DNA of 32,000 nt, taken from assembly GCF_000179635.2 (NCBI RefSeq), contig NC_014825.1, positions 180,001 to 212,000 on the forward strand. The letters run 5' to 3'. This DNA is from Ruminococcus albus 7 = DSM 20455 (lineage in GTDB: Bacteria; Bacillota; Clostridia; Oscillospirales; Ruminococcaceae). The notes beneath the pieces were generated by a model. The model saw only the letters and a program-made list of their open reading frames with translations. It searched no databases and was not told the origin of the DNA. This document shows, in pieces, positions 16,011-32,000 of this stretch (position 1 is its first letter; each line of letters opens with the position of its first letter). A program made the position numbers and the translations under genes.

Positions 16011-16063
16011 TTACATAAGTTTCACGCCATAATTTGATAATATTTGATTTTGGAGGAGTCAAA

Positions 16064-17143: not shown

Positions 17144-17245
17144 CGTCAATTATTCGTCAAAAAACCGTCGGGGATAGCTCCATAAAATGGCGCTATCCCG
17201 CGATATTTCGACGTATTGCCGCAAATTAAGTTGTTTTGTTACAAA

Positions 17246-17289
17246 CCGAGATAGCACTTCCCTGCGCTATTTCGGTATTTTCATTTTTT
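17246..17289 (+). terminator. hairpin plus T-tract between convergent int1 and the SLOG gene
   Basis: CCGAGATAGC (17246-17255) pairs with GCTATTTCGG (17266-17275), giving a 10-bp stem with one G-U and a 10-nt loop, followed by TATTTTCATTTTTT. A related 8-bp hairpin GGGATAGC/GCTATCCC lies at 17171-17199. Confidence 0.5.
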
Positions 17290-17745
17290 AAGCAGATTTA
17301 TTATCCGTTTTCCACATTTTTCAGCATACTTCATCGCCTTAGCCGCTCCGCCGCCTTTTTCAACAGCACAGATCACAAGGTCACTGCGGTCAACCATGCT
17401 TTTGTTTCTCTCATAGATAGCCGCCTTCGGATGCGCTGCCGCAGCTTCGGAACAGATCTCGACTTCATCATAATAGGCTTCGTAGCTTTCACGATTATCA
17501 CGGTATTCCGCCCGTTCATACGGCAGCACAAGTATCAGCGACGCATTTCCGCAAGCGTAGTCATCGATCGCCTTTCGTACAGTTGAAGCCGCCAGCTGAT
17601 CGAAATCGCCGTCCCTGCCTACAAGAAATTCGACGTACTCTTTTGATTTTATCAATTCCCGCAGAATTGTGAGCAGTCTTTTCTCCAGCGCAAACATATT
17701 CGGCAGTTTCCTATGCCCGAAAAACGTCACCGTGTAAATATTCAT
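17281..17745 (-). CDS. SLOG-superfamily protein (DUF1273 / YpsA-like)
   Basis: N-terminal TFFGHRKL, VGRDGDFDQLAA glycine-rich loop, ERNKSMVDRSDLVICAV and GGAAKAMKYAEKCGKRIINL match the pattern I associate with clostridial DUF1273 proteins. GAGG RBS. Confidence 0.65.
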   Translation of the reverse strand: MNIYTVTFFGHRKLPNMFALEKRLLTILRELIKSKEYVEFLVGRDGDFDQLAASTVRKAIDDYACGNASLILVLPYERAEYRDNRESYEAYYDEVEICSEAAAAHPKAAIYERNKSMVDRSDLVICAVEKGGGAAKAMKYAEKCGKRIINLLKK

Positions 17746-17849
17746 ACCGCACCGCCTCAGAATCCGCTTAGGAAATCCGACGAAATTTTTACCGTCAACT
17801 TGCTTTTTGAAAGTCGATAAAGTATAATAAATACGTGGGGTTTATGACT

Positions 17850-17869
17850 TTTCGCAAAGTCTGTGATTT
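17850..17869. repeat. left arm of a perfect 20-bp inverted repeat (IRL)
   Basis: TTTCGCAAAGTCTGTGATTT is the exact reverse complement of 19127-19146. It overlaps the internal palindrome GACTTT-tcgc-AAAGTC (17846-17861). Confidence 0.95.
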
Positions 17870-17935
17870 CAGGGCGAAACTGTTCAGAAGCCCGATTTTA
17901 CAGGCTATTTATATTTTCCTTGACGGCAAATTACG

Positions 17936-19021
17936 TTAAGCTCCCATCGTCATGAGGTCCATGCAGGACTTCTTGTGGCTCATTGACGAATGCACATATC
18001 GGTCAAGAGTAATCTGGGACGACGAGTGTCCGAGTATCTCAGAGAGCGTCTTAACGTCAAATCCGATCTCAATCGCTTCTGAAGCCATTTTATGGCGGAG
18101 ACTATGGTAGGTGAAGCTGCCGAGCCCGAGCCTGTTAAGTATGCTCTTAAATCGGTATTGCAGCGTTCTCGGCTCAATAGGCGTACCCGTTCCCGTCAGC
18201 ACATAGCTGTCGGGCTTTCTTTTTAACTCCGTAAGCATCGGCACAAGGCACTCGGGAATGGGTATCTCACGCTTGGATGACTGGCTTTTAGGCTCTGTTA
18301 TGATGATTTTTGTCTTGCTTTTGCCGTCATAATTCTGTATGCGCTGTATAGTGTGTCTGACGTAAAGCACACGCTTTTCTATGTCAATATCCTGCCAGCT
18401 GAGAGCACAAACCTCGCCTATTCTCATGCCCGTAAAAAGCGACAGCGCCACGGCGAGAGTCGTTTCGTTATGGTTCGTATTTATGTAGTACACGAGCTTT
18501 CTCTTTTCCTCGGCAGTCATAATATTTATCTCGGGCTTCGCTTTCTTGGGCATCACCACGCCCTCGATCACGTTTGTAATGTTGTACTCGTTCGCTGCAT
18601 AGCGGTACATCGCCTTCATCACTGTAATTATATCGCCCACATACCTTGCTGAAAGCCCCTGACTCAGCTTTTTCTGGATAAATTCGGAGATCATCCTTGT
18701 CTTGATCGAAGCGCATACTTTAGCCCCAAATTCGGGCAGTATATGGCGTTCTATTTTCATGCGGTAGTTGGAAGCGGTGGAATCCTTTATCCTGTTTTTC
18801 ATAACAAAAAGCCATTCCCACGCAAGCTCTCTGACGGTCATTACCGTTATGCTCTCACCGCTTGTGTTCCTGCCGCCTGTTTCCTCCATCATCTTGTATT
18901 CCGCTTCTTCCTGCGTTTTACCGTAGAAGGAGCGGTATTTTTTATGTCCGTCTTTATCTTCAACACGAATGCGGCACTCCCAGCGCCCGTCCTTTCTTTT
19001 GTACGTTGTTCCCTTATTCAT
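17936..19021 (-). CDS. tyrosine-type site-specific recombinase (int2), paralog of int1
   Basis: GMRIGEVCALSWQDID, HSLRHKMAS, LGHS and RYVHS. Colinear with int1 from GTTY.RKDGRWE to the C-terminus. TTG start at 19021-19019 preceded by GGAGG. Confidence 0.9.
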   Translation of the reverse strand: MNKGTTYKRKDGRWECRIRVEDKDGHKKYRSFYGKTQEEAEYKMMEETGGRNTSGESITVMTVRELAWEWLFVMKNRIKDSTASNYRMKIERHILPEFGAKVCASIKTRMISEFIQKKLSQGLSARYVGDIITVMKAMYRYAANEYNITNVIEGVVMPKKAKPEINIMTAEEKRKLVYYINTNHNETTLAVALSLFTGMRIGEVCALSWQDIDIEKRVLYVRHTIQRIQNYDGKSKTKIIITEPKSQSSKREIPIPECLVPMLTELKRKPDSYVLTGTGTPIEPRTLQYRFKSILNRLGLGSFTYHSLRHKMASEAIEIGFDVKTLSEILGHSSSQITLDRYVHSSMSHKKSCMDLMTMGA

Positions 19022-19240: not shown

Positions 19241-22200
19241 TCAGCGTTTTGGCTTCTTCGCTACCGGCTTTTTCTGTTCCTCCTGTTCCTGCTTGTGCTC
19301 ACGTTCGGGAGCCTTGAAGGATCTGAGTTCCTTGAAACCAAAAGTATCCACATAGTAAGCCTTTCCCTTTGCGACAACAACATCTGATACAGACAAGCTG
19401 TGTCCTTTGAAGTCCGCAGGGTGGTCAACATTGAATTTTGTATAGACGGCTTCAAGCTGCCTGCCTATGGTATCCCCCGTCTTTTCAAAAGGAGAATAGT
19501 CGCCCTCATACACCTTGTCATAGGTCGAAATGTCGGGCTTCTTCCCCTGTTCCGCAAGCCGTTCCAGGCTGATGAAGCGCATATCGCGGGTATCATCACC
19601 GCCTTTGAGCTGATAGATCTCGAATGTAGGCTTGTCCTGTGAGGGAATAGGCTGTGTAGGCGAAGCGATAGCAGCTTTCAGCGCGTCATTACAAGCGAAG
19701 TAGTCGCCATAGCACAATACGCCGGTCTGATTGTAGTTTCCATCGTTATTATCGAGGGTGTACTTCACAAGCATATGCGTAGTATCGGGCTTATCGTCGC
19801 ACTTTTCTATGCGGTACTGATTTGGTGCAAGCCCCTGTGACGGATCATACATACGGGCTGATATTTCGTCGATAGTCTGCGGGTGCATAAGCTCAACGTG
19901 AGCCTCGCCCTTACGCTTTTCATACACTTCCATAAGTGCTTCTTTTGCATCGGGTACTGACGATATGCCGTCCTTTACGACAGTTACAATACCGTCAGCA
20001 GCAATGCCCACAACAGCATACTTGCCGTTGTTGTTCTGACGTACCCCGTAATACTCGGTCGGAAAATCGGCTGTCCCAGCGGTGTCTATCCTATGCTCAT
20101 ACGCCGCCTTGAAACGCTCAAATTCCTCCTTGTTTTCGGGGGCGTATGTTTTCTCTGAGAGCATATCATAGACCTCGGGTGTCATATCGCCTGTCCCTGG
20201 CATACCGTTTGCATCAATGTAATGTGCGTTTATCTTAGTGACCTTTTTGTAGAAGTCGGCAGCGGGCAGACCGCTTTCTTTCTGCTCACGATCGTATGCG
20301 TCATTGTCCAGCCAGCCAATGCCCTCAACAAAATATTCATCGGCAGAAGTATTGTAATACTTGGTTTCGGGGATACCCCTGAAATCGTCCGAGATAGACA
20401 CCTTTTCCACCGCAAGCAGGTACTTGTCCTTGAAAAAGTCAGGAAGCTCCTTCTTTTCTTCAACAACAGCGTGTTCTCTCTGTAAATGGAATTTCTTGTC
20501 GATCAATTCCTCAAAAAGATGGTTCATGATGACGGGGTGTGTTTCCGTGAGATATTTCAGCCTTGTTTTGTCGCTGTCAAACATATACTGCCGCGCCATA
20601 TCCTTGACCTCATTTGTAAAACGTCCGTCCTGCATTTTTAGCTGTATCGTCGCAGCGACCGTATACATAGCACGTTCGATACCAAACTTGTCCGTGAGGG
20701 TCTGAACGAACCCCGACAGGTTTCTGTTCTCATACGCGGAGTGGATATTCTGCTCAATGTAGTCACGGCAAGCCTGCGAAGCCTTTATGCTTGCTTGCAG
20801 ATCTGAGATCCGCCCATTCATTTTCGCATCCATGTAGGACTCCACCACGACAGGAACGGACTTGTAATCAAAAACAGCATTTGACCGCGGCGGCATATCC
20901 GAGAGCGTATCAAAAAGCGCATCGGGAATAGTGCCGCCCTGTCTTGGGATATTATCGAAATCTCCCGTGAATGGACGAGCGTTTCCGAAGCCGCCTCTGT
21001 CAGCATAAGCCGGTGCGCCGTATGCCGGCTGATTGTTCTGCTGATAATTATTCTGGTTATTGGTGCGGCTGTTCTGAGAATACATCTGCTTTACCTCAGC
21101 GACCGCCGCTTCATAGCGAGGAATATCAGCCTTGTTTATGGTTATCGTGGTCGTATATCCTTTACGCAAACCGCTGAACCTAACGCCGTACTCATTCAAC
21201 TTCTGTGCGATATTATCGGCGTGACGATTTTTCAGCTTCGGATAATACTGTAAATCGGTTTTCTGTCCCAACTGGTCATAGGGTGTGTTGCCGATGACAT
21301 TCGGATTGCTCTGCTGCGGCTGTGCCGGCTGATTATTGTAGCCATTCTGCTGAAACGCCCCCTGCTGTCTGCCGCTCGTCATATTACCGAGCCTTTGCAG
21401 CAGCACATTAGCTTCACCGGATACCTGTGCATCACCTACAGTGCTTACGACCTTACTCAGAAAAGTATTTATGCTCTGAACATCGCCATTGGCGATATTA
21501 TTCGCAACACTTTGTATACCGCGCTCACGGTCGCCTGCAACATTGCGGTATCCGTTTGTGTTGTAGTTATACATAAATGCTTCGATGTCACGCGCAAGCA
21601 TATCGGGACTGTCATTATTCTGCTGATAACCGCCGCCCTGCCTGCTGTTGTTACGCTGATCGTACATCTGCTTGACCTTATCGACCGCCGCTTCGTAGCG
21701 AGGAATATCCGCTGAATTTATGGTAATCGTAGTAGTGCCGCCCTTTATCACGCCGCTGTATCTGATACCGTCCGCATCGAGCTGGCGAGCGATATTCTGA
21801 GCGTGTTTATTGTTCAGCCCCTTGTAATACTGGAGCTGTCCCCTGCCGCCAAGCTGATCGTAAGGCGTGTTGCCGATAATGTTACTGTTCCTCTGCTGAT
21901 AGCCGCCCTGCTGCGGAAAATTTCTCTGATTGTAGCTATCATAAAACTGCTGATTTCTCACGTTTCCTAAACCTCCCTTGTCGAAATCAAGTTCCGCCGA
22001 ATACTGATACTCGCTTAATGCTATGTTTGCCGTGTCGGGAGCATTACGCACCTCGTCTATGCTTGTCGCCTGTTTTCCTTCGATGAAAACATCAAGACCC
22101 CTGCCCCACATTTCAATAGCTTCCGCTTTCGATACGGGGTACAAATCGGGGTTATCCTCGGCAGCAACAATGCGCTTCGGCTCTTTTTCAATACCGTACA

Positions 22201-23515
22201 GACCGGAGAAGTTTTCAATCTCCTCACGGCTTTCAGCCATGCCCTCTGTACCGTCTGGATACAAAAGATAGACTGCTTCACCCCTATCATAAGCGGCGAG
22301 GGCCTCCTCAGTTGTATCAATAGGGTTCATATACTGAAAGTCGTAGCCGTAGCTATTGCGCTGATTTATCGTGTTGGCGGTATCATCGATAGTTTTGAAC
22401 ACCGATCCGATATCCGTTTCATTTTCAGCCAGCTCCATGATTTTTGCGGTGTCGCTGTCCTCAAAAACAACTCCGTTCTGCTGAACTATATCGAGATACA
22501 TTTCCGCCTTCTGAACATTTGATAATTCGGTATCGTCCATAATTTCGTTGACCGTCAGATCACGCTTTTTGTATTTCAGAAGTTCCGAGTCAATAGCCGT
22601 GAAAAGTGTCTGCGATGTTTTCTGAATTTCATCAAGAAACTTGTTCAGTTGGTCAAGCTGTTTTCCCTCCGACCATGAAGCAATATACGGGAAAGAATAG
22701 TCCGAAGTGTTAACCCCCAGCTTCTCGCAGACGATAAATGCAATTGATTCCGCCTGCACCTCTTTTTCATTTCGTGGTGATTTGGTCGTAACGATCTTTT
22801 TATCGGGATCGTGCAGCAGACAGTGAGCAGATTCGTGAACGACAGTCTTTAGCACCTGCTCGCCGCTCATACCTGTCTTTATTATAATACTTTTTGCCGA
22901 GGGACTGTAGTATCCTTTTGCGCCTCCGGTTATGGTGCGATACTCAGGTGCAATCCCCGTTGCTTTCTTTATCCCCTTGAAAATAACGTTCAGCTTTTCT
23001 TCGTCTATCTCGCCCACAAGCTCCTGAACAGGGTCAGGGATTGGCTTTCCGTCCGTCTGCGAAAGGTCGAAAACATACTGTTTCTTGAACCGCATTTCAA
23101 CAATGTTCTTTTCCACCGTTTCCATCTGTTCGGTGCCGTCATCGTTATACAGTTTATTTCCCCACTCGTCCTCCGCCTGACGTTCTATCTCTACAAACTG
23201 ATTAGTTTTATGGGGAACGGGCGACATTATGATAATGCCGCTTTCTCCTTTGTTGACAGAGCGACCAAGTTTCTTCCACAGCCCGAACGAACCCACAAGA
23301 GTCGCGTCCGGGCGCTGTAAATTGATAAGCATCGTATTTCTCGCAGAGTAGTCAGTGAACTTCGACACGAATTTCAGATACTCCTTGTACTTCTCCGATG
23401 AAAATACTGCGTGCACACCGTTATCAATACGCTTGAATATATCCTGCATTTCCTGTTGCAGCCTTCGCTGATACTCGGCACGTTCCTCGGGGGTAAAACT
23501 CTTTTTCCAAGCCAT
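19241..23515 (-). CDS. 1424-aa polyvalent conjugative-element protein: ArdC-N-like ssDNA-binding domain, HExxH zincin, duplicated 74-aa module, DUF3849-like and YodL-like domains
   Basis: N-terminal YSARNTMLINLQ...WKKLGRSVNKGESGI (ArdC-N pattern). HESAH at 22823-22837. ASQACRDYIEQNI...FGIERAMYTVAATIQLKMQDGRF...THP (DUF3849-like). C-terminal FEIYQLKGG...GHSLSVSDVVV...YYVDTFGF (YodL-like). GGGGGAG RBS. Confidence 0.85.
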   Translation of the reverse strand: MAWKKSFTPEERAEYQRRLQQEMQDIFKRIDNGVHAVFSSEKYKEYLKFVSKFTDYSARNTMLINLQRPDATLVGSFGLWKKLGRSVNKGESGIIIMSPVPHKTNQFVEIERQAEDEWGNKLYNDDGTEQMETVEKNIVEMRFKKQYVFDLSQTDGKPIPDPVQELVGEIDEEKLNVIFKGIKKATGIAPEYRTITGGAKGYYSPSAKSIIIKTGMSGEQVLKTVVHESAHCLLHDPDKKIVTTKSPRNEKEVQAESIAFIVCEKLGVNTSDYSFPYIASWSEGKQLDQLNKFLDEIQKTSQTLFTAIDSELLKYKKRDLTVNEIMDDTELSNVQKAEMYLDIVQQNGVVFEDSDTAKIMELAENETDIGSVFKTIDDTANTINQRNSYGYDFQYMNPIDTTEEALAAYDRGEAVYLLYPDGTEGMAESREEIENFSGLYGIEKEPKRIVAAEDNPDLYPVSKAEAIEMWGRGLDVFIEGKQATSIDEVRNAPDTANIALSEYQYSAELDFDKGGLGNVRNQQFYDSYNQRNFPQQGGYQQRNSNIIGNTPYDQLGGRGQLQYYKGLNNKHAQNIARQLDADGIRYSGVIKGGTTTITINSADIPRYEAAVDKVKQMYDQRNNSRQGGGYQQNNDSPDMLARDIEAFMYNYNTNGYRNVAGDRERGIQSVANNIANGDVQSINTFLSKVVSTVGDAQVSGEANVLLQRLGNMTSGRQQGAFQQNGYNNQPAQPQQSNPNVIGNTPYDQLGQKTDLQYYPKLKNRHADNIAQKLNEYGVRFSGLRKGYTTTITINKADIPRYEAAVAEVKQMYSQNSRTNNQNNYQQNNQPAYGAPAYADRGGFGNARPFTGDFDNIPRQGGTIPDALFDTLSDMPPRSNAVFDYKSVPVVVESYMDAKMNGRISDLQASIKASQACRDYIEQNIHSAYENRNLSGFVQTLTDKFGIERAMYTVAATIQLKMQDGRFTNEVKDMARQYMFDSDKTRLKYLTETHPVIMNHLFEELIDKKFHLQREHAVVEEKKELPDFFKDKYLLAVEKVSISDDFRGIPETKYYNTSADEYFVEGIGWLDNDAYDREQKESGLPAADFYKKVTKINAHYIDANGMPGTGDMTPEVYDMLSEKTYAPENKEEFERFKAAYEHRIDTAGTADFPTEYYGVRQNNNGKYAVVGIAADGIVTVVKDGISSVPDAKEALMEVYEKRKGEAHVELMHPQTIDEISARMYDPSQGLAPNQYRIEKCDDKPDTTHMLVKYTLDNNDGNYNQTGVLCYGDYFACNDALKAAIASPTQPIPSQDKPTFEIYQLKGGDDTRDMRFISLERLAEQGKKPDISTYDKVYEGDYSPFEKTGDTIGRQLEAVYTKFNVDHPADFKGHSLSVSDVVVAKGKAYYVDTFGFKELRSFKAPEREHKQEQEEQKKPVAKKPKR
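21080..21301 (-). repeat. coding tandem-duplication unit 2 (74 aa)
   Basis: NVIGNTPYDQLGQKTDLQYYPKLKNRHADNIAQKLNEYGVRFSGLRKGYTTTITINKADIPRYEAAVAEVKQMY. Lies 582 nt (194 aa) downstream of unit 1. Confidence 0.9.
21662..21883 (-). repeat. coding tandem-duplication unit 1 (74 aa) inside the polyvalent protein
   Basis: NIIGNTPYDQLGGRGQLQYYKGLNNKHAQNIARQLDADGIRYSGVIKGGTTTITINSADIPRYEAAVDKVKQMY. 51/74 positions identical to unit 2 by hand alignment. Confidence 0.9.
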
Positions 23516-23528: not shown

Positions 23529-24002
23529 TTAAAGCTCGTCATATTCCGATAAATAACTATAATCGGAAATGGTTATGCCCTTGCCTTCGATCATGCTTTT
23601 CAGCTCATCGGGGGTAATCACCTTATGCGGCTGATCTCCGATAGTTATGACTTCCTCATCAACCGCCGCCATGCGTTCGTTATAGCGTTCTCTATACTCA
23701 GCCCGCCACTGCTGCCGCAGTTCCAGTGCCGCATTGAAAACCTCATAAACGTATCTGCTCGCAAGATCGGCAACGGTGCATTTGCCCGAAACAAAGTCAT
23801 TGTCAATTTTATCGAGCAAAATTGTATCATCATGTTTCTTTTGATACATCATGAGCTTGACAACCACTCTGCCACTGATGTAAAATGTAAGTACGGCGGT
23901 ATATCCGTGAACAAATACCTTAACCTCGGTGCTCTGATTTTTCACGCTGACAGCGTACTCTTTGAAGCCGCACATAAGGGCTTCATTCTGCACCAGCGTC
24001 AT
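23529..24002 (-). CDS. hypothetical 157-aa protein with an acidic C-terminus
   Basis: Open frame in the operon; its stop lies within the RBS region of the downstream 1424-aa gene. No recognisable motif. ATG at 24002 (ORF call begins at the GTG at 24005). Confidence 0.5.
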   Translation of the reverse strand: MTLVQNEALMCGFKEYAVSVKNQSTEVKVFVHGYTAVLTFYISGRVVVKLMMYQKKHDDTILLDKIDNDFVSGKCTVADLASRYVYEVFNAALELRQQWRAEYRERYNERMAAVDEEVITIGDQPHKVITPDELKSMIEGKGITISDYSYLSEYDEL

Positions 24003-24048
24003 CACGCTTTTCTGAAAATCACGGTATAGATCTATTTTCTTGATATTA

Positions 24049-25164
24049 TCATCTCCCTCTGTGTTTTGCAGGCTTTGGTATTCCGGGCTTGTCTGCGATG
24101 ACCTTGCTTTCGGAAAGCTCCTGCTTCTGTTTCTGTTCCATCATCTGCTTTACCGCCTGCGCCGTTCTAAGCCTGTATGCCGTGTCCTCAATAGCAGTAT
24201 CTATCTCGGCAACTCCGTGAAGCTGGGTCATCGTGTCCCACTCCTGGTAAATTTCATCAAGAACGTTATCCGTATCAAGCAAAACTTGCAAATCATCGGG
24301 GCTTAATGAAGTCATATTAGTGTTGCAAAAATCAACAATATAGTCCTTGTTGTAGATCTCATACGCCGACTTGATTATCCTATCCGGGTCGCCCTGCTTC
24401 AGTTCAGCTATATATTTTTCATACTCCCCCGCCACCTTATCCGCAAGTTTTGACATTCCTTTATTTACCTGAAAATCGGAATACTTCTGGTCGAGGATAT
24501 ACGGTGTGAGCTTTTCTATGTTTTCACCCATACTGCTTTTCAGGTATTCGCTGAACTGTAACCAGTCGGGCTGCTCGATTATCTTGAATATTGCCGCCGC
24601 CAGCCGATGATCGTCAAATCTCATGCGGTCGCCCTCGGCAAGTGCAGCATCAATATCTTTGAAGGTGGATAAATGCTCTCCCGAATATTCAGAGGTCAGC
24701 GTCATACCAAGTGCCGCCATTTCACGGGCAAGTCCGGGGTCAAGAAATAACCCCTTATCGCCAGCGTAATATGCTCCCGATTTTACAAACTCCGCAAGCT
24801 CACGGTAGGTCTTTTGAGTATCATTTTCCGCTACAAAAAGATTTACCGCAGTTCTTCTCGGAAGCTCTCTGTCAATGGATTCGAGAAAGGCACCGAGGTC
24901 ACGCTCATTGCGGTTGGAATTGACCGAGCTGTGCGCTATCTGCATCACATCAAAATTATCTATCAGCCTTGTGTCGCAGGCGTGTATCAGCTCATCAACT
25001 GTTCTGGGGCTGTACCGTGTGCTCGCAAAAACAACGGCGGTCGGGGCATAGGAAGAAATAAAGTCGAGCGTTCTGTCGGAATAATTCATCTCTAAGACTT
25101 TTGCGAACATATACGGATCAAGCAGGTTGGAAAGCTGTTTCAGATTGTCATCTCTGCTGTTCAT
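24049..25164 (-). CDS. uncharacterised ICE protein, paralog P1 of a four-member tandem family (C-terminal DUF3848-like region)
   Basis: Shares with P2-P4 the blocks D(L/V)(L/M)(H/Q)I..(Y/S)S, KSGAY(Y/Q/F), GD.(I/M) and PDW..F. The C-terminal half (GDPDRIIKSAYEIYNKDYI...LDEIYQEW) resembles DUF3848. GGGGGAG RBS; ATGA overlap with P2. Confidence 0.7.
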   Translation of the reverse strand: MNSRDDNLKQLSNLLDPYMFAKVLEMNYSDRTLDFISSYAPTAVVFASTRYSPRTVDELIHACDTRLIDNFDVMQIAHSSVNSNRNERDLGAFLESIDRELPRRTAVNLFVAENDTQKTYRELAEFVKSGAYYAGDKGLFLDPGLAREMAALGMTLTSEYSGEHLSTFKDIDAALAEGDRMRFDDHRLAAAIFKIIEQPDWLQFSEYLKSSMGENIEKLTPYILDQKYSDFQVNKGMSKLADKVAGEYEKYIAELKQGDPDRIIKSAYEIYNKDYIVDFCNTNMTSLSPDDLQVLLDTDNVLDEIYQEWDTMTQLHGVAEIDTAIEDTAYRLRTAQAVKQMMEQKQKQELSESKVIADKPGIPKPAKHRGR

Positions 25165-26255
25165 CTTGCTCCCCCTTTCTTTTTCGGCAGCTGCGGTTTA
25201 TCCGCAAGTATATCTTCGTTTTTGGATTTTGACCTTTTCTGCTGTTCCAGAATACTGTCTGCCGCATACTCCATAGCTTTCGGAATATCGTCATAGGTTT
25301 TGAGATACTCGCGTTTCAGCCAAGCGGAATATATCTCATCAAGAGGGTTCTCGGCTGACATCAGCGCACCATACTGCTCCTCGGTAATATCCGCAGGCTC
25401 GGATTCAATATATGACTGAATGTTGGTTTTTACAGTGATCTCGTAACTGCACTTTATGGCTTCATCGACACCCTGCTCACGAATACCGTGGATAAAGGCT
25501 TCAAAGTTTCTGTCAACCTTACGGCTGAGTTCAATGTTCAGCTCCTCCACACGGTACTCCTGATAAGCTTCCACCAGTCCGTCAACGGTCATGTGTTCAA
25601 TGTCCTCCATATCTTCCGCTATGTAATTACGAAAATCTTCCCAATCGGGATTGCTCCGCATTTCGTTTATCTTCACAGCAAGTGCCGACCTTGAAAAAGT
25701 GATGCTGTCACCATCCGCAATGGTCTGCTCGATGTCTTTTACAAGATAAAAATCGTTGCTCTTGTCGTATGCGAAAAGCTCTATGCCCAGCTTGTTGATC
25801 TCACGGGCTACATCGGGATCGAGAGCAACAAAAGTGTTGTCGCCAACCTGATACGCACCCGATTTCACCATCGAATATATCTCATTATAGCTCCAGTCCT
25901 CGAACTTCGCCGCTACCAAAATGCGTGAAGCGGTCTGTGTGTCCAGCCCTGCGGCAATAGAAGAAAAATAGTCGTTAAAATACTTCTCACTGCCGCCGGA
26001 AACCAAGCTGTAATTTGTGATATGGAGAAGATCGCCCATAGTTATTATATTGCTGTCAAAAGCCTTGACAAGACGCTCCACACCCTCATTACTAAGTTTT
26101 GTATGCGCCAGCCTGTCGGCAAGCTCGCGGCTGTTGTTCGCCATGACCTCTAACACATAGTCGGGAAAATGATGACTAACGATCTTTGCGTATTCCGCAT
26201 TATCGACCATGTTGCACAGCTTCTCCATGCTTTCTGCTCGTGTAATATTGCTCAC
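25161..26255 (-). CDS. uncharacterised ICE protein, paralog P2
   Basis: Same block structure (GDLLHITNYS, MVKSGAYQVGD, NPDWEDF, AIKCSYEITVK...LDEIYSAW). The start appears to be the GTG at 26255 overlapping the P3 stop (GTGA). Start uncertain because AGGAGG abuts the GTG. Confidence 0.65.
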   Translation of the reverse strand: MSNITRAESMEKLCNMVDNAEYAKIVSHHFPDYVLEVMANNSRELADRLAHTKLSNEGVERLVKAFDSNIITMGDLLHITNYSLVSGGSEKYFNDYFSSIAAGLDTQTASRILVAAKFEDWSYNEIYSMVKSGAYQVGDNTFVALDPDVAREINKLGIELFAYDKSNDFYLVKDIEQTIADGDSITFSRSALAVKINEMRSNPDWEDFRNYIAEDMEDIEHMTVDGLVEAYQEYRVEELNIELSRKVDRNFEAFIHGIREQGVDEAIKCSYEITVKTNIQSYIESEPADITEEQYGALMSAENPLDEIYSAWLKREYLKTYDDIPKAMEYAADSILEQQKRSKSKNEDILADKPQLPKKKGGAR

Positions 26256-27385
26256 CTCCTGAATTTCTTTCCCGGCTTGAAATGCGGCTTGTCCTGCAAA
26301 TCATCAGCCATAGTTTTCTTTGCAAGCTCCGCCGCCAGCTTCCGTTCACGTTCCCGGGCAGCTATCAGCTTATCGGCGGTGTTTTCAATAATGACCTCAA
26401 TATCCGTATCGGCAAAATCATCGTCGCTGCGCCACTGCTCATAGATAGCGTTCAGAGCGTTATTACTTGACATGAGTGCATCCGTTTTCTGTTCGGGTAT
26501 CAGCTGCGGAACTTCCGTCATAAACATTTTTATCTGTTCCTTGATGACGATCTCATACGCCGAACCTATGATCTGTTCGGGCGGTCGTTTCTTGATATCT
26601 TCCATGAAAGCAGTATGCTCAGCCGCTACCTTGTCCACCAGCTTGTCAGCATAACGCTCCATAGAAAAATATCGGTACTGCGCTCTGAGTTCATCGCCAG
26701 TAAGTTGTGTCCTGTCTATGCCCAGATGCTTCTGAAACCACGCTTTGAAATCGTGCCAATCGGGGTACGCCATCATTTCATTGACAGCGACCGCCAGCTT
26801 CGGAAACTTGACAAGTTTTATTCTGTCTCCCTTTTTGACTGCTTCATCAAAATCCGATTTTTGTGTGAGATCGTAGTATGTGCCTTCTTTTCGCATAGCG
26901 GTCAAAGGCACACCGAGGTCACGAAGCTCGGCTGCCACTCCCGTATTCAGACCAATGCTTGCGAACTGCGTCGGATAATATGCGCCGCTTTTTATAAGTG
27001 CCATAAGACCGTGATAGGTGTCAGGCTCATAGGAAGTTGCGGTGAGAATCCGTGCGGCGGTGGTATGATTTATCTCCTTCGCCCTGAGCGAGCGGATAAA
27101 ATCATCAATATATTCCTCACACCCGAAATCATAGCAAGAGTATTCCATAATGTGCAGAAGATCCTTCCAGTCGAACAGCTTATCGTCATAAGCGATTATC
27201 AGCTTTTCGATGCTCTCAACGTCAAATTTTGATTCTGCAAAACGCTCGACATAACCCCTATCAAATTCAGCCATGACCGCAATTGCTTGGTCGGAATAAT
27301 CACAAGCGATTATCCTCGCCATCTGTTCCTTTGACAGCACCTCCGCAAGACTTGCAAGGTTATCATCACGATTTGTTTGTATCAT
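26252..27385 (-). CDS. uncharacterised ICE protein, paralog P3
   Basis: KDLLHIMEYS, LIKSGAYYPT, YPDWHDF, IIGSAYEIVIKEQI...LNAIYEQW. AGAGGTGA RBS. Confidence 0.7.
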   Translation of the reverse strand: MIQTNRDDNLASLAEVLSKEQMARIIACDYSDQAIAVMAEFDRGYVERFAESKFDVESIEKLIIAYDDKLFDWKDLLHIMEYSCYDFGCEEYIDDFIRSLRAKEINHTTAARILTATSYEPDTYHGLMALIKSGAYYPTQFASIGLNTGVAAELRDLGVPLTAMRKEGTYYDLTQKSDFDEAVKKGDRIKLVKFPKLAVAVNEMMAYPDWHDFKAWFQKHLGIDRTQLTGDELRAQYRYFSMERYADKLVDKVAAEHTAFMEDIKKRPPEQIIGSAYEIVIKEQIKMFMTEVPQLIPEQKTDALMSSNNALNAIYEQWRSDDDFADTDIEVIIENTADKLIAARERERKLAAELAKKTMADDLQDKPHFKPGKKFRR

Positions 27386-27388
27386 ACG

Positions 27389-28111
27389 TCACCTCTTTTT
27401 CGAGCGCACGGGCGCAGCCTTGTATTCGGAATAATATTTCTCCATATCATCGGCAGAAATATCTTCTGTTTCTCTTGAAAGCAGATACTTGTAAAAGCTG
27501 TCCCAGTCGTCTTTACTCATGTACTCACAGATAGTCTGCACCAACTTAGTGCTGCCGCCCCGGATACAATCGCCGTACTTGATACTGTCCTCGACATTTA
27601 TTACTCCGCTCGGGATATGCCCCTTTCGGCTCGCCCTCAGCGGTACTTTCAGTTTGAAAAGCACTCTTGCGACCTCATAAGACAGCGACAGCGTTCCGTA
27701 TTTCGTCGGGAAATATGCACCCGACTTCACCTTGCCTACAAGGGTATCGTAGTCCTCCTGCTCATAGTTATCCGCAACAAAAATATTAGTCGCTGTCTTA
27801 CGGCTCATGCCGCCGCCCTTTATGCACTCGATATATTTCTTCACATCGACCTCGTTGCCGTTGCGAAAGGTGGAATACCTCATGACGTGCAGCAGGTCGG
27901 CACCGTCGATTATCTTTTCGGAATACGCTTTTGTAAGGGTATCCACCGTTTCCGCAGAATACATTGTATCGGTGAACACCTTTGCTTTCTTTTTATCCGC
28001 CGCCGCTATGACCGAAAGGGTATTATCATCATACCCTTTCGCGATCACAGCAGCGAGAGCCTGACCGCCGAGATTGGCGGCTATCTGCTCAATCGCTTCA
28101 TCTCTTGTCAT
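27389..28111 (-). CDS. uncharacterised ICE protein, paralog P4 (short form lacking the DUF3848-like C-terminal half)
   Basis: ADLLHVMRYS, KVKSGAYFPT, KDDWDSF. Start set to the ATG at 28111 with a GGAG RBS embedded in the end of the SNF2 gene (ORF call 28150 is an in-frame upstream extension). Confidence 0.65.
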   Translation of the reverse strand: MTRDEAIEQIAANLGGQALAAVIAKGYDDNTLSVIAAADKKKAKVFTDTMYSAETVDTLTKAYSEKIIDGADLLHVMRYSTFRNGNEVDVKKYIECIKGGGMSRKTATNIFVADNYEQEDYDTLVGKVKSGAYFPTKYGTLSLSYEVARVLFKLKVPLRASRKGHIPSGVINVEDSIKYGDCIRGGSTKLVQTICEYMSKDDWDSFYKYLLSRETEDISADDMEKYYSEYKAAPVRSKKR

Positions 28112-28115: not shown

Positions 28116-31100
28116 TCATCTCCTATTCGATTTTGTAGGTGTACTAACATTTGTTGGCGGATTTAACACTGTGACCTTCGGCTTGTAGTTCGGCATATCC
28201 GCTACCTCCTCGACTACCGACGGGATAGCGTCATCACCCTTGCCGCTGCTGAGTGCCTCATTCACTACATCGAGCCTTGCCAGCTTTTCGGCAAGTTCAT
28301 CGGCTCTGTCAAAGGGCTTTGTCAAGTTCTCTTTTGCTTCGGCAAGGTTAGCCTTAGCCTTTTCAATGTCATTCTTATACTGCACAATACGTTTTGCTAT
28401 CTCGTTCGCCGCAAGGTTTTCTATACGGCGCATATTGCCCTGTTTGTTCTCAAGATTGACATCACAGGTATATTTCAACGAACCGCAAAGAGATATGACG
28501 CACGGTGCGCCCTGGTCGAAGAAAGTTAGATTTTGCGGGTTCTTTTCAAGCAGAAGATCGAAGCCGAAATAGCTGCCGACTCTCATGCTTTCTCCCGTAG
28601 TTGAAACCTTGATGATAGCCTTTTCAAGAGCTTCTCCGGCTTCATCACGAACGTGTTCACTTGTCGCTTCGGAATAAACCTTTCCGTCAATTTCTATCTG
28701 GAAAGCGGTTCCATCGGGATGATTTACGCTAAACTGTGCTATGTCGGCAGAAGCCTTTTCAAGATAAGTAGAATACTGTTCGATACGCTGCGGCAAAGTG
28801 CGCTCCGCCTGCTCCTGATACCGATACAACGATTTCTTGTACTCCGCTTCAAGCATTTTGAGCGTTGCAACATCGTTGTCAAGCTGAATTTTCTCCTTTA
28901 TCATGGGATTGCCCGAAGCGATAGCCTGCATTTCGGAGTATGTCAGCACCATCTCGTCAACGTCCTCGGATACACGAACAGGGTCTTTTGAGGTCATTAT
29001 CTGATTTATGAACTTCGCCTTGTTGGTAATAATGCCCATCATGTAGGCATCGAACGTATTTTCGGTTAAATAATGATAGATACCGACCTCCTTGAACATA
29101 TTGCCCTGACGTACTCCACGACCGTCCTGCTGAGTAAGATCCGCAGGCTTCCACGGAATATCCAAGTGGTGAATAGCGCATATCCTGTCCTGAATATTTG
29201 CACCCGTGCCGAGTTTCGAGGTCGAAGCCAATATGAAACGCTTTTCGCCCTGCCGCAGCTGCTCGAACATTTCTGCTCTTGCTTTGTCGTTCTTTGCATC
29301 GCCCGCAAAACAAATCTCATCACGGGGAATGCCGCGCTTTACAAGATCGTCCTTTATAGCTTCATAAATTGAGAAATGCTCTGCGTCCTCGTTGATAGCT
29401 ATATCACAAAAGACTATCTGAACGCCCCTCTCCGCCATTGTGTTGTTATAATTCTCCACCAAAATATCCAACAGCTTATTCACCTTGCTGTCAGGTGCCG
29501 GAACTGCTTCCGGGTTCATACAGCGGCAGTCAAGACCTAAAAGACGTGCTTCGTGCGTGATGCGGAGCATATTATCCTCACGGGGATCCACGCCGCCGCA
29601 GTGTATCATTTCGGCTCGCTGTGCAAGCTGTTCCATGTACTCCTTTTGATACTCGTCGGGTTTCGCAGAAATAACGATAGGCTTTCCGGTTTTAAGATCG
29701 GGTACAGGCAGCTTTATCATGTCGGGGGTCTGAATATCTGCAAATTCTTTGTACATCAACATCAATTCGGGGATATTCACAAACTTTGAAAAACGGTTTT
29801 TCATCTGAAATCCGTTGCCCGCAGGCTTGATCTCCAACTGCGATACGACCTCACCGAATGTTGATGCCCAGTCATCGAATGTTTCAAGACCTGCCTTTTC
29901 TAAGAGATCGGGACGCAGGTATCTTTGCATAACATAGAACTCGACCATACTGTTCGTGCAAGGTGTTCCCGTGGCGTACAAAATGTTGTTACAGCCGTAC
30001 TTGTCGTTCAGATACTGCGTTTTCATCAACATATCCTCCGACTTCTGCGCGGCAGTCGTCTGAACGCCTGCAACATTCGACATTTTTGTTGCGACAAAGC
30101 AGTTTTTGTAGTAATGCGCCTCATCGCAGACAAGATAATCGAAACCGAGCTTTTCAAAACACAGGCTGTTATCCTTTTTAGATGACATCAGCTTTTCAAG
30201 ATGCTCCTCCAGCTTCTTTTTCTGACGCTCCAGTGCCTTAACGGAAATTCTGTCAGAACTATCCACTTCTTCAAGCGCAGCCATCAGTTCATCAAGCTCG
30301 CGCTCCATAAACTGCTGCCGGTACTCGGTGGACATAGGTATTCTTTCAAACTGATTGAACGACATAATGACAGCATCATAGTCGCCCGTGACACACCTTG
30401 CAATAAACCGCTGTCGGTTTTCCTTTGTGAAATCCTCGGGTCGGGCAACAAGCAGTTTTGCGTTAGGATACAAACGTATCCATTCGCTCGCCATCTGTAA
30501 AGTCAAGTGCTTCGGCACTACCACGCAGGCTTTTGAGATAAGACCAAGCCTTTTCTTTTCCATAGTGATAGCGACCATTTCAAAGCTCTTTCCGGCACCA
30601 ACACAGTGAGCCAAAAGCGTATTGCCGCCCAGCTTACCACGCATAATAGCATTGTTCTGATGCGGACGCATCTGTATCGCGGGGTTCTTTCCGGGGTAGG
30701 TCTGATGTGAACCATCATACTCTCTGCCCCTGATAGCGTTGAAAAGATTATTGTATCGCTCAACATATTTTTCACGCCTATCCATATTCTCCCAAAGCCA
30801 AGTTCTGAACGCTTCCTTGATGACACGAGCCTTGTCCTTTGCAAGCTGTGTTTCCTTCGCATTGATCTCATACCAGACTCGCCCGTCCTCCTCTCGCTTA
30901 TCACGGACAACAATATCGCGCTGATTGAGCAAGTTCTCCAGAATATGATAACTGCTCATACGGCTTGTACCGTAAGTCTGCGTTGCCGCTACCGACCTGT
31001 CCTGATACCTGCCGTCGATCTTGTATTCGCCCATTCGGGTTCGGGTGATCGGGTGCGAATAAATATCTCCTTTGAGGACCTCCCGCATAAAACGGTTATA

Positions 31101-32000
31101 GTCCTCAACATCGACCCAGTTTGCACCGATCCTTACGGATATTTCCGACGCTTCGAGGTCTTTTGGAACAACCGCTTTCAGGGCTTCTACATTACGCTCA
31201 AAGCTGCTGTCGATATGCTTTGAATATTCCTCGGCAATCCTCAGCTTTTCACGGACGTTACCCGAAAGATACTCGCTTGCGTCTTCGTATCCCGAAAGAG
31301 GATCATTGTCCTTTACCTTTTGAGGATTTCTGTAAATATCCGTTCCAAGTTCCGAAATTATCTCGTCAGGCTCAACGCCTACAAGTTCAGCCATAAATGC
31401 AATATCCACTTTACCCTTTCGGTCAATGGATATTTGCAATGCCTCCTGCGGTGTTTCGCACGATACGATTTCCACCTCCGGCATTATCGTGCGCTTTGAA
31501 AATATCTCCGCTTTCTCCACCGTCTTTTTCTCGGTGTCCACTATTTCAAGAGCCGCCAAAGTATTGTAATCATCATCATGCTGAAATACTCTTTCGTTGG
31601 CACGGTCTGTAATTGCTCCGTATGCTCTCTTGAAGCGGTCATAGGTATAGTTGAGTTCCGCTTGCAGCTTTTTCAGTTCAGCATCATCGCAGCCCCTTGC
31701 CTGTGCATCAATTACCGCCATAGCCTTTTGACGTATCTGGTGCATACCCATCATTCTGTCGAGGGTCTTGCCGGTTTCCTGCACAGCGATCATAATCTCG
31801 TTTTCTCTGAAAAACAGCTTGCCGTTGACAACAGTGTGGGTGTAATTTCTTACGGTCGGGTCGGCGGGAATAATTTCAATATCCTTCTTGCCTTCCTCGA
31901 CGATTTTCACCGTTTCGATCTTACCCTTGATTTTTGATATAGCCGCCTGTAACTGCTCGGACAGGGGCTTGCTATCGTCCGGAATACAAGTAGTGACACG
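28116..32000 (-). CDS. SNF2-family helicase, C-terminal >=1290 aa of a larger protein whose N-terminus lies beyond the right window edge
   Basis: RPHQNNAI...LLAHCVGAGKSFEM (motif I), LVCDEAHYYKN (DEAH), ATGTPCTNS, GTGANIQ, QQDGRGVRQG (motif VI). The ORF-track start at 31910 is a GTG, and the frame stays open to base 32000 (...SKIKGKIETVKIVEEGKK...). The upstream segment EYLSGNVREKL is typical of methylase-helicase fusions of ICEs and phages. Confidence 0.85.
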   Translation of the reverse strand, partial: RVTTCIPDDSKPLSEQLQAAISKIKGKIETVKIVEEGKKDIEIIPADPTVRNYTHTVVNGKLFFRENEIMIAVQETGKTLDRMMGMHQIRQKAMAVIDAQARGCDDAELKKLQAELNYTYDRFKRAYGAITDRANERVFQHDDDYNTLAALEIVDTEKKTVEKAEIFSKRTIMPEVEIVSCETPQEALQISIDRKGKVDIAFMAELVGVEPDEIISELGTDIYRNPQKVKDNDPLSGYEDASEYLSGNVREKLRIAEEYSKHIDSSFERNVEALKAVVPKDLEASEISVRIGANWVDVEDYNRFMREVLKGDIYSHPITRTRMGEYKIDGRYQDRSVAATQTYGTSRMSSYHILENLLNQRDIVVRDKREEDGRVWYEINAKETQLAKDKARVIKEAFRTWLWENMDRREKYVERYNNLFNAIRGREYDGSHQTYPGKNPAIQMRPHQNNAIMRGKLGGNTLLAHCVGAGKSFEMVAITMEKKRLGLISKACVVVPKHLTLQMASEWIRLYPNAKLLVARPEDFTKENRQRFIARCVTGDYDAVIMSFNQFERIPMSTEYRQQFMERELDELMAALEEVDSSDRISVKALERQKKKLEEHLEKLMSSKKDNSLCFEKLGFDYLVCDEAHYYKNCFVATKMSNVAGVQTTAAQKSEDMLMKTQYLNDKYGCNNILYATGTPCTNSMVEFYVMQRYLRPDLLEKAGLETFDDWASTFGEVVSQLEIKPAGNGFQMKNRFSKFVNIPELMLMYKEFADIQTPDMIKLPVPDLKTGKPIVISAKPDEYQKEYMEQLAQRAEMIHCGGVDPREDNMLRITHEARLLGLDCRCMNPEAVPAPDSKVNKLLDILVENYNNTMAERGVQIVFCDIAINEDAEHFSIYEAIKDDLVKRGIPRDEICFAGDAKNDKARAEMFEQLRQGEKRFILASTSKLGTGANIQDRICAIHHLDIPWKPADLTQQDGRGVRQGNMFKEVGIYHYLTENTFDAYMMGIITNKAKFINQIMTSKDPVRVSEDVDEMVLTYSEMQAIASGNPMIKEKIQLDNDVATLKMLEAEYKKSLYRYQEQAERTLPQRIEQYSTYLEKASADIAQFSVNHPDGTAFQIEIDGKVYSEATSEHVRDEAGEALEKAIIKVSTTGESMRVGSYFGFDLLLEKNPQNLTFFDQGAPCVISLCGSLKYTCDVNLENKQGNMRRIENLAANEIAKRIVQYKNDIEKAKANLAEAKENLTKPFDRADELAEKLARLDVVNEALSSGKGDDAIPSVVEEVADMPNYKPKVTVLNPPTNVSTPTKSNRR

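Follow-up and report, generated by a model that had tools for sequence, protein, structure and literature searches.

The window, a stretch of 32,000 nucleotides of Ruminococcus albus 7 = DSM 20455 (contig NC_014825.1), contains four consecutive minus-strand genes, which we refer to as P4-P3-P2-P1. In the ORF list, these genes and their neighbors are arranged as follows.

28116..32000, minus strand: giant methylase/SNF2-helicase gene, first of the coupled series, running off the window; the C-terminal 1,264+ aa are present and end with ...PTKSNRR
27389..28111, minus strand: P4, short paralog, 240 aa, N-domain and 15-aa basic tail (...KAAPVRSKKR)
26252..27385, minus strand: P3, 377 aa, N-domain (aa 1-241), DUF3848 (aa 247-340) and disordered basic tail ...DKPHFKPGKKFRR
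25161..26255, minus strand: P2, 364 aa, GTG start overlapping the P3 stop, N-domain, DUF3848 (aa 239-333) and tail ...DKPQLPKKKGGAR
24049..25164, minus strand: P1, 371 aa, ATG overlapping the P2 stop (ATGA), N-domain, DUF3848 (aa 238-327) and tail ...DKPGIPKPAKHRGR
23529..24005, minus strand: small ORF of 157/158 aa, acidic, which separates P1 from the ArdC gene and ends with ...SEYDEL
19241..23515, minus strand: ArdC polyvalent protein, 1,424 aa, tail ...KKPVAKKPKR
17936..19021, minus strand: tyrosine integrase (Pfam Phage_integrase, E 1.6e-27), 220 nt downstream of the ArdC gene

As originally predicted, the four genes are located on the same strand at distances of -4 to +3 nt: P4 and P3 are separated by 3 nt, while P3/P2 and P2/P1 overlap by 4 nt each (GTGA and ATGA, respectively). 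The P4 ORF reaches 28150, and the ATG at 28111 is preceded by a GGAG SD sequence 8 nt upstream; the 240-aa protein from this start is an independent gene call on 23 other contigs. The P2 start is ambiguous: the SD sequence abuts the GTG but is ideally spaced for an ATT lying 9 nt further on, and some gene callers choose M16, which yields 349 aa. The start must be at or upstream of the ATT preceding the conserved Thr5-Arg6, because the paralog alignment demands this. P1 to P3 are moderately acidic (pI 4.6-5.1), and P4 has a pI of 7.6.

BLASTP revealed pairwise identities of 29-32% among the four proteins P1-P4 over 213-381 aligned residues (E 7e-27 to 1e-53), with scores of 96-171 bits versus a maximum of 25 bits among 200 shuffled controls. 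P1-P4 are true paralogs. The conserved blocks claimed for them were retrieved in part: KSGAY, GD and DW..F are invariant across all four, but DLLH(I/V), present in P2-P4, is degenerate in P1, and the PDW block is DDW in P4. The DUF3848-like C-terminal region expected in P1-P3 matched PF12959 above the Pfam gathering cut-off of 30 bits in all three proteins (P3, 71 bits, E 8.6e-20; P2, 55 bits, E 1.1e-14; P1, 48 bits, E 1.3e-12). P4 is indeed a short form, in which DUF3848 is absent and no Pfam domain scored above threshold; its N-domain reached 354 bits with the N-domain HMM.

The N-domain (~235 aa, present in all four paralogs) is previously undescribed. It matched nothing in Pfam, NCBIfam, PHROGs, PADLOC or PDB sequences, and Foldseek retrieved no neighbor of the P3 or P4 model in the PDB and none of the P3 model in BFVD. 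In line with the original prediction, profile, sequence and fold searches thus gave no assignment to a housekeeping or structural conjugation family. TALE and helical-repeat matches were nonsignificant (E ≥ 0.01, TM < 0.3). The AF2 model of P4 (pLDDT 91.7, pTM 0.85) predicts with confidence a compact N-domain fold, modeled with about nine short helices that contain a weak internal repeat of hairpins and lead into a small alpha/beta unit. In the P3 model (pLDDT 86.9), DUF3848 is helical, with two ~36-residue helices (230-265 and 329-364), and residues 364-377 have a pLDDT of <50. No conserved His/Cys/catalytic-type motif was found in the paralog alignment and models.

The flanking genes were also analyzed. 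The SNF2 ORF contains SNF2-rel, ResIII and Helicase_C domains (Pfam) in the window, and its full-length orthologues (2,873-2,936 aa) comprise an Eco57I-type methylase, LPD16, WH_1, DUF8437 and the SNF2 helicase. The ArdC protein is composed of ArdC-N (aa 20-149), an HExxH metallopeptidase-like region (~aa 197-260), DUF3849 (892-1003) and YodL (1298-1400), and carries two copies of a ~60- to 75-aa domain. The small ORF, which the original prediction had not mentioned, matched no entry of Pfam, NCBIfam, PHROGs or PADLOC; its orthologues show 45-94% identity or are missing in relatives. The integrase marks the integrase-proximal end of the element, and the ArdC-integrase synteny is repeated in related elements (L001, L004, L006, L009, L017). 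In Ruminococcus/Oscillospiraceae ICEs, a co-directional, tightly coupled cargo operon (topoisomerase III, methylase/SNF2 giant, one or more family genes, sometimes the small ORF, ArdC-DUF3849-YodL protein) is located between T4SS genes and the integrase; in one related element, the topoisomerase and SNF2 genes directly follow those for T4CP, PrgI and VirB4. As had been claimed, the array is flanked by a methylase-helicase giant on one side and an ArdC polyvalent protein on the other, and the ICE that carries it has a T4SS. Neither a relaxase nor an oriT was recovered.

The family comprises 44 clusters among 1.84 billion representatives and is thus too narrow to be a general means of establishment. 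It is always found between ~2,900-aa methylase/SNF2 and ArdC-DUF3849-YodL proteins beside an ICE integrase, and this synteny is kept even in single-copy elements at ~33% identity. Copy number does vary across homologous ICEs, with 1, 3, 4 or 5 copies per element, and a single copy is probably the ancestral state. The paralogs form four orthologous clades, each common to several elements, which agrees with the proposed old, diverged duplications; the single-copy forms group with P3/P4 and are nearest to P3. The P4-P3-P2-P1 array arose through ancient tandem duplications, specific to the lineage, of the gene for a single accessory ICE protein. Its order is kept in all 4-copy elements, and in 3-copy elements P1 is replaced by a 203- to 223-aa form consisting of the last ~50 aa of the N-domain, DUF3848 and the tail. 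In element L010, a P1 of only 60% identity adjoins a P3 of 94% identity. The orthologue P0042 is named "DUF3848 domain-containing protein" by NCBI. Contrary to the diversifying selection suggested earlier, gene-wide dN/dS between orthologues was 0.04-0.28 for every paralog. Gene-wide, purifying selection acts on every paralog and is relaxed 2-4 times relative to the flanking giants.

A disordered, Lys/Pro-rich C-terminal tail whose last residue is Arg is common to the SNF2 protein, P4, P3, P2, P1 and the ArdC protein (disorder was predicted in the P3 and P4 AF2 models). A tail with a net charge of +3 to +6 over the last 10 residues and a terminal Arg was detected in 6/7 operon proteins, the small ORF being the one without it, versus 0/16 other window ORFs (Fisher p ~7e-5, our own arithmetic). 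The last 14 codons of the six genes are located as follows.

28119-28160, minus strand: SNF2 tail
27392-27433, minus strand: P4 tail
26255..26296, minus strand: P3 tail
25164-25205, minus strand: P2 tail
24052-24093, minus strand: P1 tail
19244-19285, minus strand: ArdC tail

The terminal Arg is present in 55/65 full-length family members, and a DKP..KP motif is conserved 11-13 residues before the stop (tail motif DKP.FKP.KK.RR-COOH). In related elements, nearly all intact family members are tailed, as is every SNF2 protein whose gene 3' end could be read. ArdC-type proteins outside the Ruminococcus elements have a basic end with K-L/I instead of Arg, and T4SS machinery proteins lack the tail. 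In element L021, five neighboring nonhomologous proteins, including an RNase T-type exonuclease, share another terminus (G/S-R-K, preceded by Pro/Gly). Since the last two to three tail codons double as the next SD sequence in the window's lineage (AGG AGA TGA, AAG AGG TGA, AGG AGG TGA, GGG GGA GCA AGA TGA and AGA GGG AGA TGA), terminal-Arg conservation is partly a nucleotide-level constraint.

In one reading, for which these five gene ends speak, the terminal basic residues would be a mere by-product of coupling (in-frame SD plus A-rich leader) and the array a set of redundant, drifting duplicates. We consider this highly improbable. The tail is kept, with both AGR and CGN Arg codons, where the SD follows the stop (L015, L017, L020, L021); the ArdC tail (...AAA CGC TGA) has no coupled gene downstream; and DKP..KP lies beyond the reach of any SD. 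Moreover, the dN/dS values, and the fact that several elements have intact orthologues, rule out drifting pseudogenes. Together, selection and the tails with an SD outside the coding region largely refute this explanation.

We tentatively favor, as a possible reading, that P1-P4 are non-enzymatic establishment factors. Their basic C-terminal tail would be recognized, and the conjugative T4SS would export them along with the methylase-helicase and the ArdC polyvalent protein; for all six proteins, the tail may be the label that directs export to the recipient. There, the paralogs would cooperate, as binding/adaptor proteins, with the polyvalent protein that bears DUF3849. Following duplication, each may have retained a distinct partner or target, which would explain why all copies are still under purifying selection. 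T4SS translocation signals include, as an established class, C-terminal motifs with a positive charge, and many element-encoded proteins are translocated by conjugative systems (PMC11288057). Solo proteins with polyvalent-protein domains occur in variable regions of Firmicutes ICE conjugation modules and have been argued to reach the recipient (Iyer et al. 2017, PMC5512222; PMC12084326). The family, or DUF3848, is also found fused to polyvalent-protein modules: P0098 joins N-domain and DUF3848 to two SpoVG domains and to the domain repeated in the ArdC protein of the window, and in L023 and L024 DUF3848 is fused directly to DUF3849. The shared tail, these fusions and the position immediately downstream of T4SS genes provide circumstantial support for the multi-specificity anti-defense or recipient-manipulation battery proposed earlier; the family showed no resemblance to any known anti-restriction protein. 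For T4SSs of Gram-positive ICEs, we know of no defined translocation signal.

Counting against export, the tail, being rich in Lys and Pro, might just as well be an arm that binds nucleic acids non-specifically. As such, it would tether the acidic body (net charge -15 to -27 in P1-P3) to transferred DNA as a coat or escort, shielding the DNA or recruiting the methylase-helicase and ArdC protein. The remaining tail-bearing proteins (topoisomerase, SNF2/methylase, ArdC) all act on DNA, one family member is fused to the nucleic-acid-binding SpoVG domains, and the tail composition (KP..KP.KK.RR) resembles histone-H1-like or AT-hook-like basic arms. We nevertheless regard this as rather improbable: the L021 terminus is short and specific, with no long basic arm, neither N-domain nor DUF3848 matched a DNA-binding fold, and P4 is not acidic. 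The coupling suggests yet another alternative, since tight translational coupling and an invariant gene order typify the subunits of a single complex rather than independent effectors. The paralogs would then be obligate subunits of a donor-side hetero-oligomeric scaffold/adaptor that docks or chaperones the two giants (or the relaxosome) at the coupling protein; a single-copy ancestor would have homo-oligomerized via the long DUF3848 helices. The 4-nt overlaps, implying equimolar synthesis, the constant order, the purifying selection on every copy, the two modeled helices and the adjoining T4SS genes are in line with this, and coupling fits such a complex as well as a battery of independent effectors. 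However, copy number is variable, elements do well with P1 reduced to DUF3848 plus tail or without P4, and the swapped-in P1 of L010 is hard to square with co-evolved subunits. We consider a scaffold less likely than export.

The DUF3848 proteins of Firmicutes conjugative elements are one known system comparable to the family: they contain the domain found in P1-P3 and adjoin or are fused to DUF3849/YodL polyvalent proteins. DUF3848 was not mentioned in the literature searched. Here, however, it accounts for only ~95 of ~370 residues, next to a larger N-domain without a family model, and P4 lacks it. The polyvalent and solo "LPD"-type modules (Iyer et al. 2017, PMC5512222; Faecalibacterium ICEs, PMC12084326) share the niche: they, too, are found in the variable region of ICE conjugation modules of Firmicutes, with a methylase-helicase dyad and an ArdC-N/peptidase/YodL polyvalent protein as neighbors. 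Like them, the family occurs solo and fused (P0098, L023), and an early action in the recipient is proposed for the two alike, delivery being a hypothesis for both. In contrast, neither N-domain nor DUF3848 matches any Pfam LPD model, and four coupled solo paralogs instead of one multidomain polypeptide are not a known arrangement. ArdA/Ocr (DNA mimics), ArdB/KlcA and ArdC resemble the family in the ArdC-N and orphan methylase neighborhood and, for P1-P3, in moderate acidity, but share no sequence or fold similarity with it, and P4 is neutral. The charge density of the family is far below that of ArdA/Ocr-type mimics, and the secondary structure of the model suggests a helical repeat plus alpha/beta unit rather than a DNA-shaped dimer. 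Finally, charged C-terminal T4SS substrates of the Agrobacterium VirE2/VirF/VirE3 type and the plasmid proteins moved by F, RP4 and pKM101 (PMC11288057) are comparable in their unstructured, positive, Arg-containing C terminus, common to unrelated proteins encoded beside a T4SS. Experiments in Gram-negative systems defined those signals, whereas the motif described here is known from sequence, differs from them and partly doubles as the ribosome-binding site of the next gene.

The ORF list placed the four paralogs on the minus strand as follows.

Genes of the array
27389-28111, minus strand, P4, 240 aa
26252-27385, minus strand, P3, 377 aa
25161-26255, minus strand, P2, 364 aa, GTG start
24049-25164, minus strand, P1, 371 aa

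This bore out the original prediction of four consecutive ORFs between 24049 and 28111 with a spacing of -4 to +3 nt. P4 and P3 are separated by a 3-nt gap, P3 and P2 overlap in GTGA (-4), and P2 and P1 overlap in ATGA (-4). With a coupled operon defined by location on one strand, stop/start overlaps or gaps of at most a few nucleotides, and no internal terminator, the array (+3, -4, and -4 nt) has the layout of a translationally coupled operon. No terminator-like site was detected at any array junction, and the count of such sites was not above the shuffled expectation. Judging from the junctions, coupling probably occurs by ribosome re-initiation.

The P4 start at 28111 is preceded by GGAG 8 nt upstream, and gene calls on 23 independent contigs give a P4 of the same 240 aa. 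Good Shine-Dalgarno (SD) sites were also found at P3, P1, and the ArdC gene. At the P2 start (window 26240-26263, minus strand), the SD AGGAGG touches the GTG with zero spacing. An in-frame ATT located 9 nt downstream of the GTG has ideal SD spacing, and P2 translated from it would begin with MTRAES, resembling MTRDEA of P4; other gene calls start P2 either at the GTG (364 aa) or at M16 (349 aa). At the 3' end of P1 (window 24032-24052, minus strand), an array-type junction is kept (GAGGGAG SD and ATGA overlap), beyond which there is just a 6-codon mini-ORF (MIISRK and stop codon). The mini-ORF may be what remains of a downstream paralog since lost, or it may serve to couple the following 157-aa ORF.

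P1 to P4 were alignable end to end with 29-32% identity (BLASTP E values of 7e-27 to 1e-53), and none of 200 shuffled controls scored above 25 bits in BLASTP. Membership in the N-domain family, named for the common N-terminal module, was defined as a full-length match to a ~235-position profile including KSGAY, GD, and (P/D)DW..F, and all four paralogs matched with 354-370 bits. Among the conserved blocks that had been predicted, KSGAY, GD, and DW..F were invariant, but DLLH(I/V) was degenerate in P1 and PDW was DDW in P4. Recent duplication at the DNA level and tandem repeats were rejected, since TRF detected none and the tail-coding DNA is only 31-45% identical between the genes.

When 1.84 billion representative proteins were searched with the N-domain profile, only 44 clusters were found, 20 of them at E < 1e-30, showing that the family is very small. 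A tblastn search with P3 against 72,556 plasmids yielded no match. The N-domain (~235 residues) had no match in Pfam, NCBIfam, PHROGs, PADLOC, or PDB sequences; these searches thus assigned it to no known family and upheld the description of the family as uncharacterised. The residues conserved across the family are mainly aromatic or hydrophobic, plus a few Asp, Glu, Ser, and Arg. Since no His/Cys or other catalytic-looking motif is among them, a binding rather than an enzymatic role of the paralogs seems likely.

For assignment to Pfam DUF3848 (PF12959), we used the family HMM at or above its gathering score of 30 bits. P1, P2, and P3 scored 48.1, 54.7, and 71.0 bits, respectively; P4 had no DUF3848 match by the Pfam HMM and is thus not a member via this domain. 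Pfam therefore confirmed that P1 to P3 have a DUF3848-like C-terminal region and that P4 is a short form. Pfam lists DUF3848 as a domain without known function, and no papers on it were retrieved from the literature library searched.

AlphaFold2 models were obtained for full-length P3 (pLDDT 86.9) and for P4, which consists of the N-domain plus a short tail (pLDDT 91.7, pTM 0.85). In the models, roughly nine short helices of the N-domain (residues ~6-132) are followed by a small alpha/beta unit (~135-190) and then by more helices; in P1 to P3, the DUF3848 region comes next, with two predicted ~36-residue helices. The final ~14 residues are disordered (pLDDT <50). Foldseek found no match at E <= 1e-3 in PDB (P3 and P4 models) or BFVD (P3 model), the top matches being only designed helical repeats and TALE (E 0.01-0.9, TM < 0.3). 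The two long helices led us to consider HsdS-like specificity subunits for the neighbouring methylase, a candidate that was rejected as there was no S-subunit match in Foldseek and the N-domain is mainly helical. Because hhalign of four helical-hairpin sub-blocks gave weak support in just two of six pairs (E 7e-5 and 2e-3), an internal repeat within the N-domain is only suggestive. In summary, the N-domain is undescribed, has no structural neighbour, and merits its own family entry.

The upstream neighbour of the array is the C-terminal part of the SNF2 giant, whose full-length orthologues (2,873-2,936 aa) contain an Eco57I-type methylase, LPD16, and an SNF2 helicase. Downstream follow, in this order, a variable 157/158-aa acidic ORF, the 1,424-aa ArdC protein (ArdC-N / HExxH / DUF3849 / YodL), and a tyrosine integrase. 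According to domain matches and orthologues, the predicted placement between an SNF2/methylase-helicase gene and an ArdC-like polyvalent protein was correct. The closest genome is that of Ruminococcus albus AR67 (NZ_FOKQ01000001.1; P3 98% identity), and further relatives are rumen Ruminococcus, Oscillospiraceae, and Clostridia MAGs. In one related locus, L026, T4CP, PrgI, and VirB4 are encoded directly upstream of the topoisomerase III and SNF2 genes and share their strand. The array therefore belongs to the variable "cargo" portion of the conjugation module of an ICE. This variable region hosts polyvalent proteins, solo polyvalent-type domains, and methylase-helicase dyads (Iyer et al., PMC5512222), and a survey of Faecalibacterium ICEs puts the same protein kinds in that niche (PMC12084326). 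Walking upstream reached only T4CP-PrgI-VirB4 in L026 and recovered no relaxase or oriT; the window contains no tRNA att site.

Two tyrosine integrases are present in opposite orientation (17936-19021, minus strand; 16034-17143, plus strand) with a 154-aa ORF between them, next to a helicase with five HA domains (13582-15813). Since this integrase-helicase block (window 13582-19021) also follows the ArdC gene in the related locus L001, it is part of the element or of a co-travelling second element. Window 3001-9000 harbors a polysaccharide-biosynthesis cluster (glycosyltransferases, sugar transferase/epimerase, PglD-like acetyltransferases) that includes a block with 30-33% GC versus 44-49% in the remaining window, which suggests a separately acquired cassette.

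To count copies, 25 related loci were scanned with HMMs. A single copy (N-domain and DUF3848) is present in seven distant elements from Clostridia, Oscillospiraceae, and Ruminococcus, where the family gene still lies between the SNF2 giant and an ArdC-type protein. Three copies are present in L001-L003, L012, and L013, namely P3, P2, and a 203-223-aa P1 that retains only the end of the N-domain and DUF3848; four, the window type, in L004-L011; and five in L014. A neighbour-joining tree revealed four orthologous clades, each common to several elements, in line with the proposal that the paralogs are old duplicates. The single-copy forms were nearest to P3/P4, and a fifth clade was found in L014.

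Nei-Gojobori dN/dS against orthologues was 0.04-0.28 for every paralog; the flanking SNF2 and ArdC genes had values of 0.02-0.04 and 0.05-0.07, respectively. In L001 and L014, amino-acid identity was 72-78% for the paralogs versus 83-91% for the neighbours. The paralogs evolve faster than their neighbours, yet they are clearly under purifying selection, and the diversifying selection originally proposed was not supported at the whole-gene level by the dN/dS values. Identity of L010 (3209-5499) to the window was 92% for P4, 94% for P3, 75% for P2, and 60% for P1, a mosaic that indicates recombinational exchange within the array. In L013 (11086-12845), a 1.7-kb insertion separates a C-terminally truncated P3 from P2. 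The metagenomic protein P0119 (450 aa) has an internal SNF2-giant segment, matching aa 14-71 of the window's N-terminally truncated ORF (IPADP.VRNYTH..), joined to the middle of an N-domain, and probably resulted from a deletion or from chimeric assembly. We conclude that the array is real and that an uncharacterised ICE accessory protein with two domains has expanded here in a lineage-specific way.

The SNF2, P4, P3, P2, P1, and ArdC proteins have disordered, Lys/Pro-rich C-termini with a terminal Arg.

C-terminal tails of the operon proteins
28119-28160, minus strand, SNF2 tail, ...TKSNRR
27392-27433, minus strand, P4 tail, ...VRSKKR
26255-26296, minus strand, P3 tail, ...DKPHFKPGKKFRR
25164-25205, minus strand, P2 tail, ...DKPQLPKKKGGAR
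24052-24093, minus strand, P1 tail, ...DKPGIPKPAKHRGR
19244-19285, minus strand, ArdC protein tail, ...KKPVAKKPKR

Such a basic tail is present in six of the seven operon proteins, from the SNF2 giant through the ArdC protein, versus none of the 16 other window ORFs, and the final 10 residues have a net charge of +3 to +6. In having an unstructured, net-positive C-terminus common to co-encoded proteins, they resemble T4SS substrates with a C-terminal basic signal. Among full-length family members, 55 of 65 end in Arg, and 59 of 65 have a net charge of at least +3 in the final ten residues. In the distant single-copy elements, tails of this kind are also found on the SNF2 and family proteins, and the ArdC-type proteins have a basic end with K-L/I rather than Arg. 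The T4SS machinery proteins of L026 are without such a tail. In L021, a Eubacterium MAG, the terminus is instead G/S-R-K in five neighbouring proteins that are not homologous to each other and include an RNase T-type exonuclease; intergenic palindromes (TATCTGACAGATA and TGTGTCTATAGACACA) recur there after the G/S-R-K genes (1195-1230, 1686-1720, 3193-3225, and 6038-6070).

In the window tails, the SD for the coupled gene that follows falls within the last codons (AGG AGG TGA and similar). A terminal Arg arising as a pure SD artefact was, however, largely rejected. In L015, L017, L020, and L021, the SD is placed after the stop codon, and CGN is among the Arg codons; the ArdC tail (CGC TGA) has no coupled gene downstream; and the conserved DKP..KP motif is located considerably further upstream than any SD. 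Hence, the tail is a protein-level feature, which doubles as a ribosome binding site in the window's lineage. Among T4SS translocation signals, positively charged C-termini form an established class, and many proteins encoded by the elements are transferred by conjugation systems (PMC11288057). By analogy, we infer that the tail may mark proteins for export to the recipient.

Fusions link the family to polyvalent proteins. The protein P0098 (1,117 aa) combines the N-domain, DUF3848, two SpoVG domains, and, at its end (E 2e-5), a ~60-aa repeat domain of the ArdC protein; in L023 and L024 (829 aa), DUF3848 is fused directly to DUF3849, which is also present in the window's ArdC protein. Both kinds of fusion suggest that the products of the array act jointly with the polyvalent protein. 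When further fusion architectures were sought with a DUF3848 profile, mostly fragments were retrieved. The repeat (~60-75 aa) occurs twice in the ArdC protein, with Gln/Asn-rich linkers between.

Repeat copies in the ArdC protein
21671-21856, minus strand, copy 1, aa 554-615
21053-21274, minus strand, copy 2, aa 748-821

Its consensus is ..GNTPYDQLG..YY..L.N.HA.NIA..L...G.R.SG..KG.TTTITIN.ADIPRYEAAV..VKQMY, and it had no Pfam match.

The hypothesis of an anti-defence or recipient-manipulation function, put forward in the original prediction, has better circumstantial support than before. A bolder scheme, which we consider rather unlikely, would make the Lys/Pro-rich, Arg-terminated tail (DKP.FKP.KK.RR-COOH; elsewhere G/S-R-K) a sequence-defined export tag marking a whole "cargo regulon" (topoisomerase, methylase-helicase giant, array, and ArdC protein) for co-transfer by a Gram-positive conjugative T4SS. 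P1 to P4 would then be translocated effectors with a new fold, each neutralising a different recipient defence or host factor. The main rival of the anti-defence or recipient-manipulation reading is a hetero-oligomeric adaptor acting on the donor side, which fits the tight coupling and the fixed gene order; the second is a DNA-tethering role of the tail.

We know of no previous report of the coupled paralog array or of the shared tail. To our knowledge, little is known about which proteins accompany the DNA in Gram-positive gut and rumen conjugation and how they are recognised. The locus offers a compact test case, with a common terminal tag on six adjacent proteins, two of which are recognised establishment types (methylase-helicase and ArdC) and four of which are paralogs built on a confidently predicted domain without known structural relative. 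Should the tag prove to be a T4SS signal, sequence could be used to predict the translocated cargo of Clostridia ICEs, and the array would be a natural experiment in the diversification of establishment factors. If not, the array is still a clean case of a DUF-type accessory gene that has undergone a narrow expansion in one lineage.

Finally, the paralogs were compared with known classes. They had no Pfam or NCBIfam match to ArdA, ArdB/KlcA, ArdC-N, or Ocr at E <= 0.1, no PDB sequence match to anti-restriction families, and no such match in Foldseek at E <= 1e-3 (PDB for both models, BFVD for P3). DNA mimics are characterised by very dense negative charge across the entire protein surface, a property judged here from pI and net charge. 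Since P1 to P3 are only moderately acidic (pI 4.6-5.1, net charge -15 to -27 over ~370 aa) and P4 is neutral (pI 7.6, net charge +1), DNA mimicry in the style of ArdA/Ocr was disfavoured. PADLOC anti-phage models gave no significant match, the best being REase_II for P3 (E 0.019, 12.6 bits). Against the LPD1-40 Pfam models (Iyer et al. 2017), P1 to P4 had no match at E <= 0.1, and LPD16 was present only in the SNF2 giant. Polyvalent-protein modules are recognised by a domain occurring both solo and fused in T4SS-borne multidomain proteins (Iyer et al. 2017). The domains of the paralogs share this solo and fused occurrence (P0098; L023 and L024; T4SS context from L026), and we rate the array as a kind of solo module associated with ICE polyvalent proteins.
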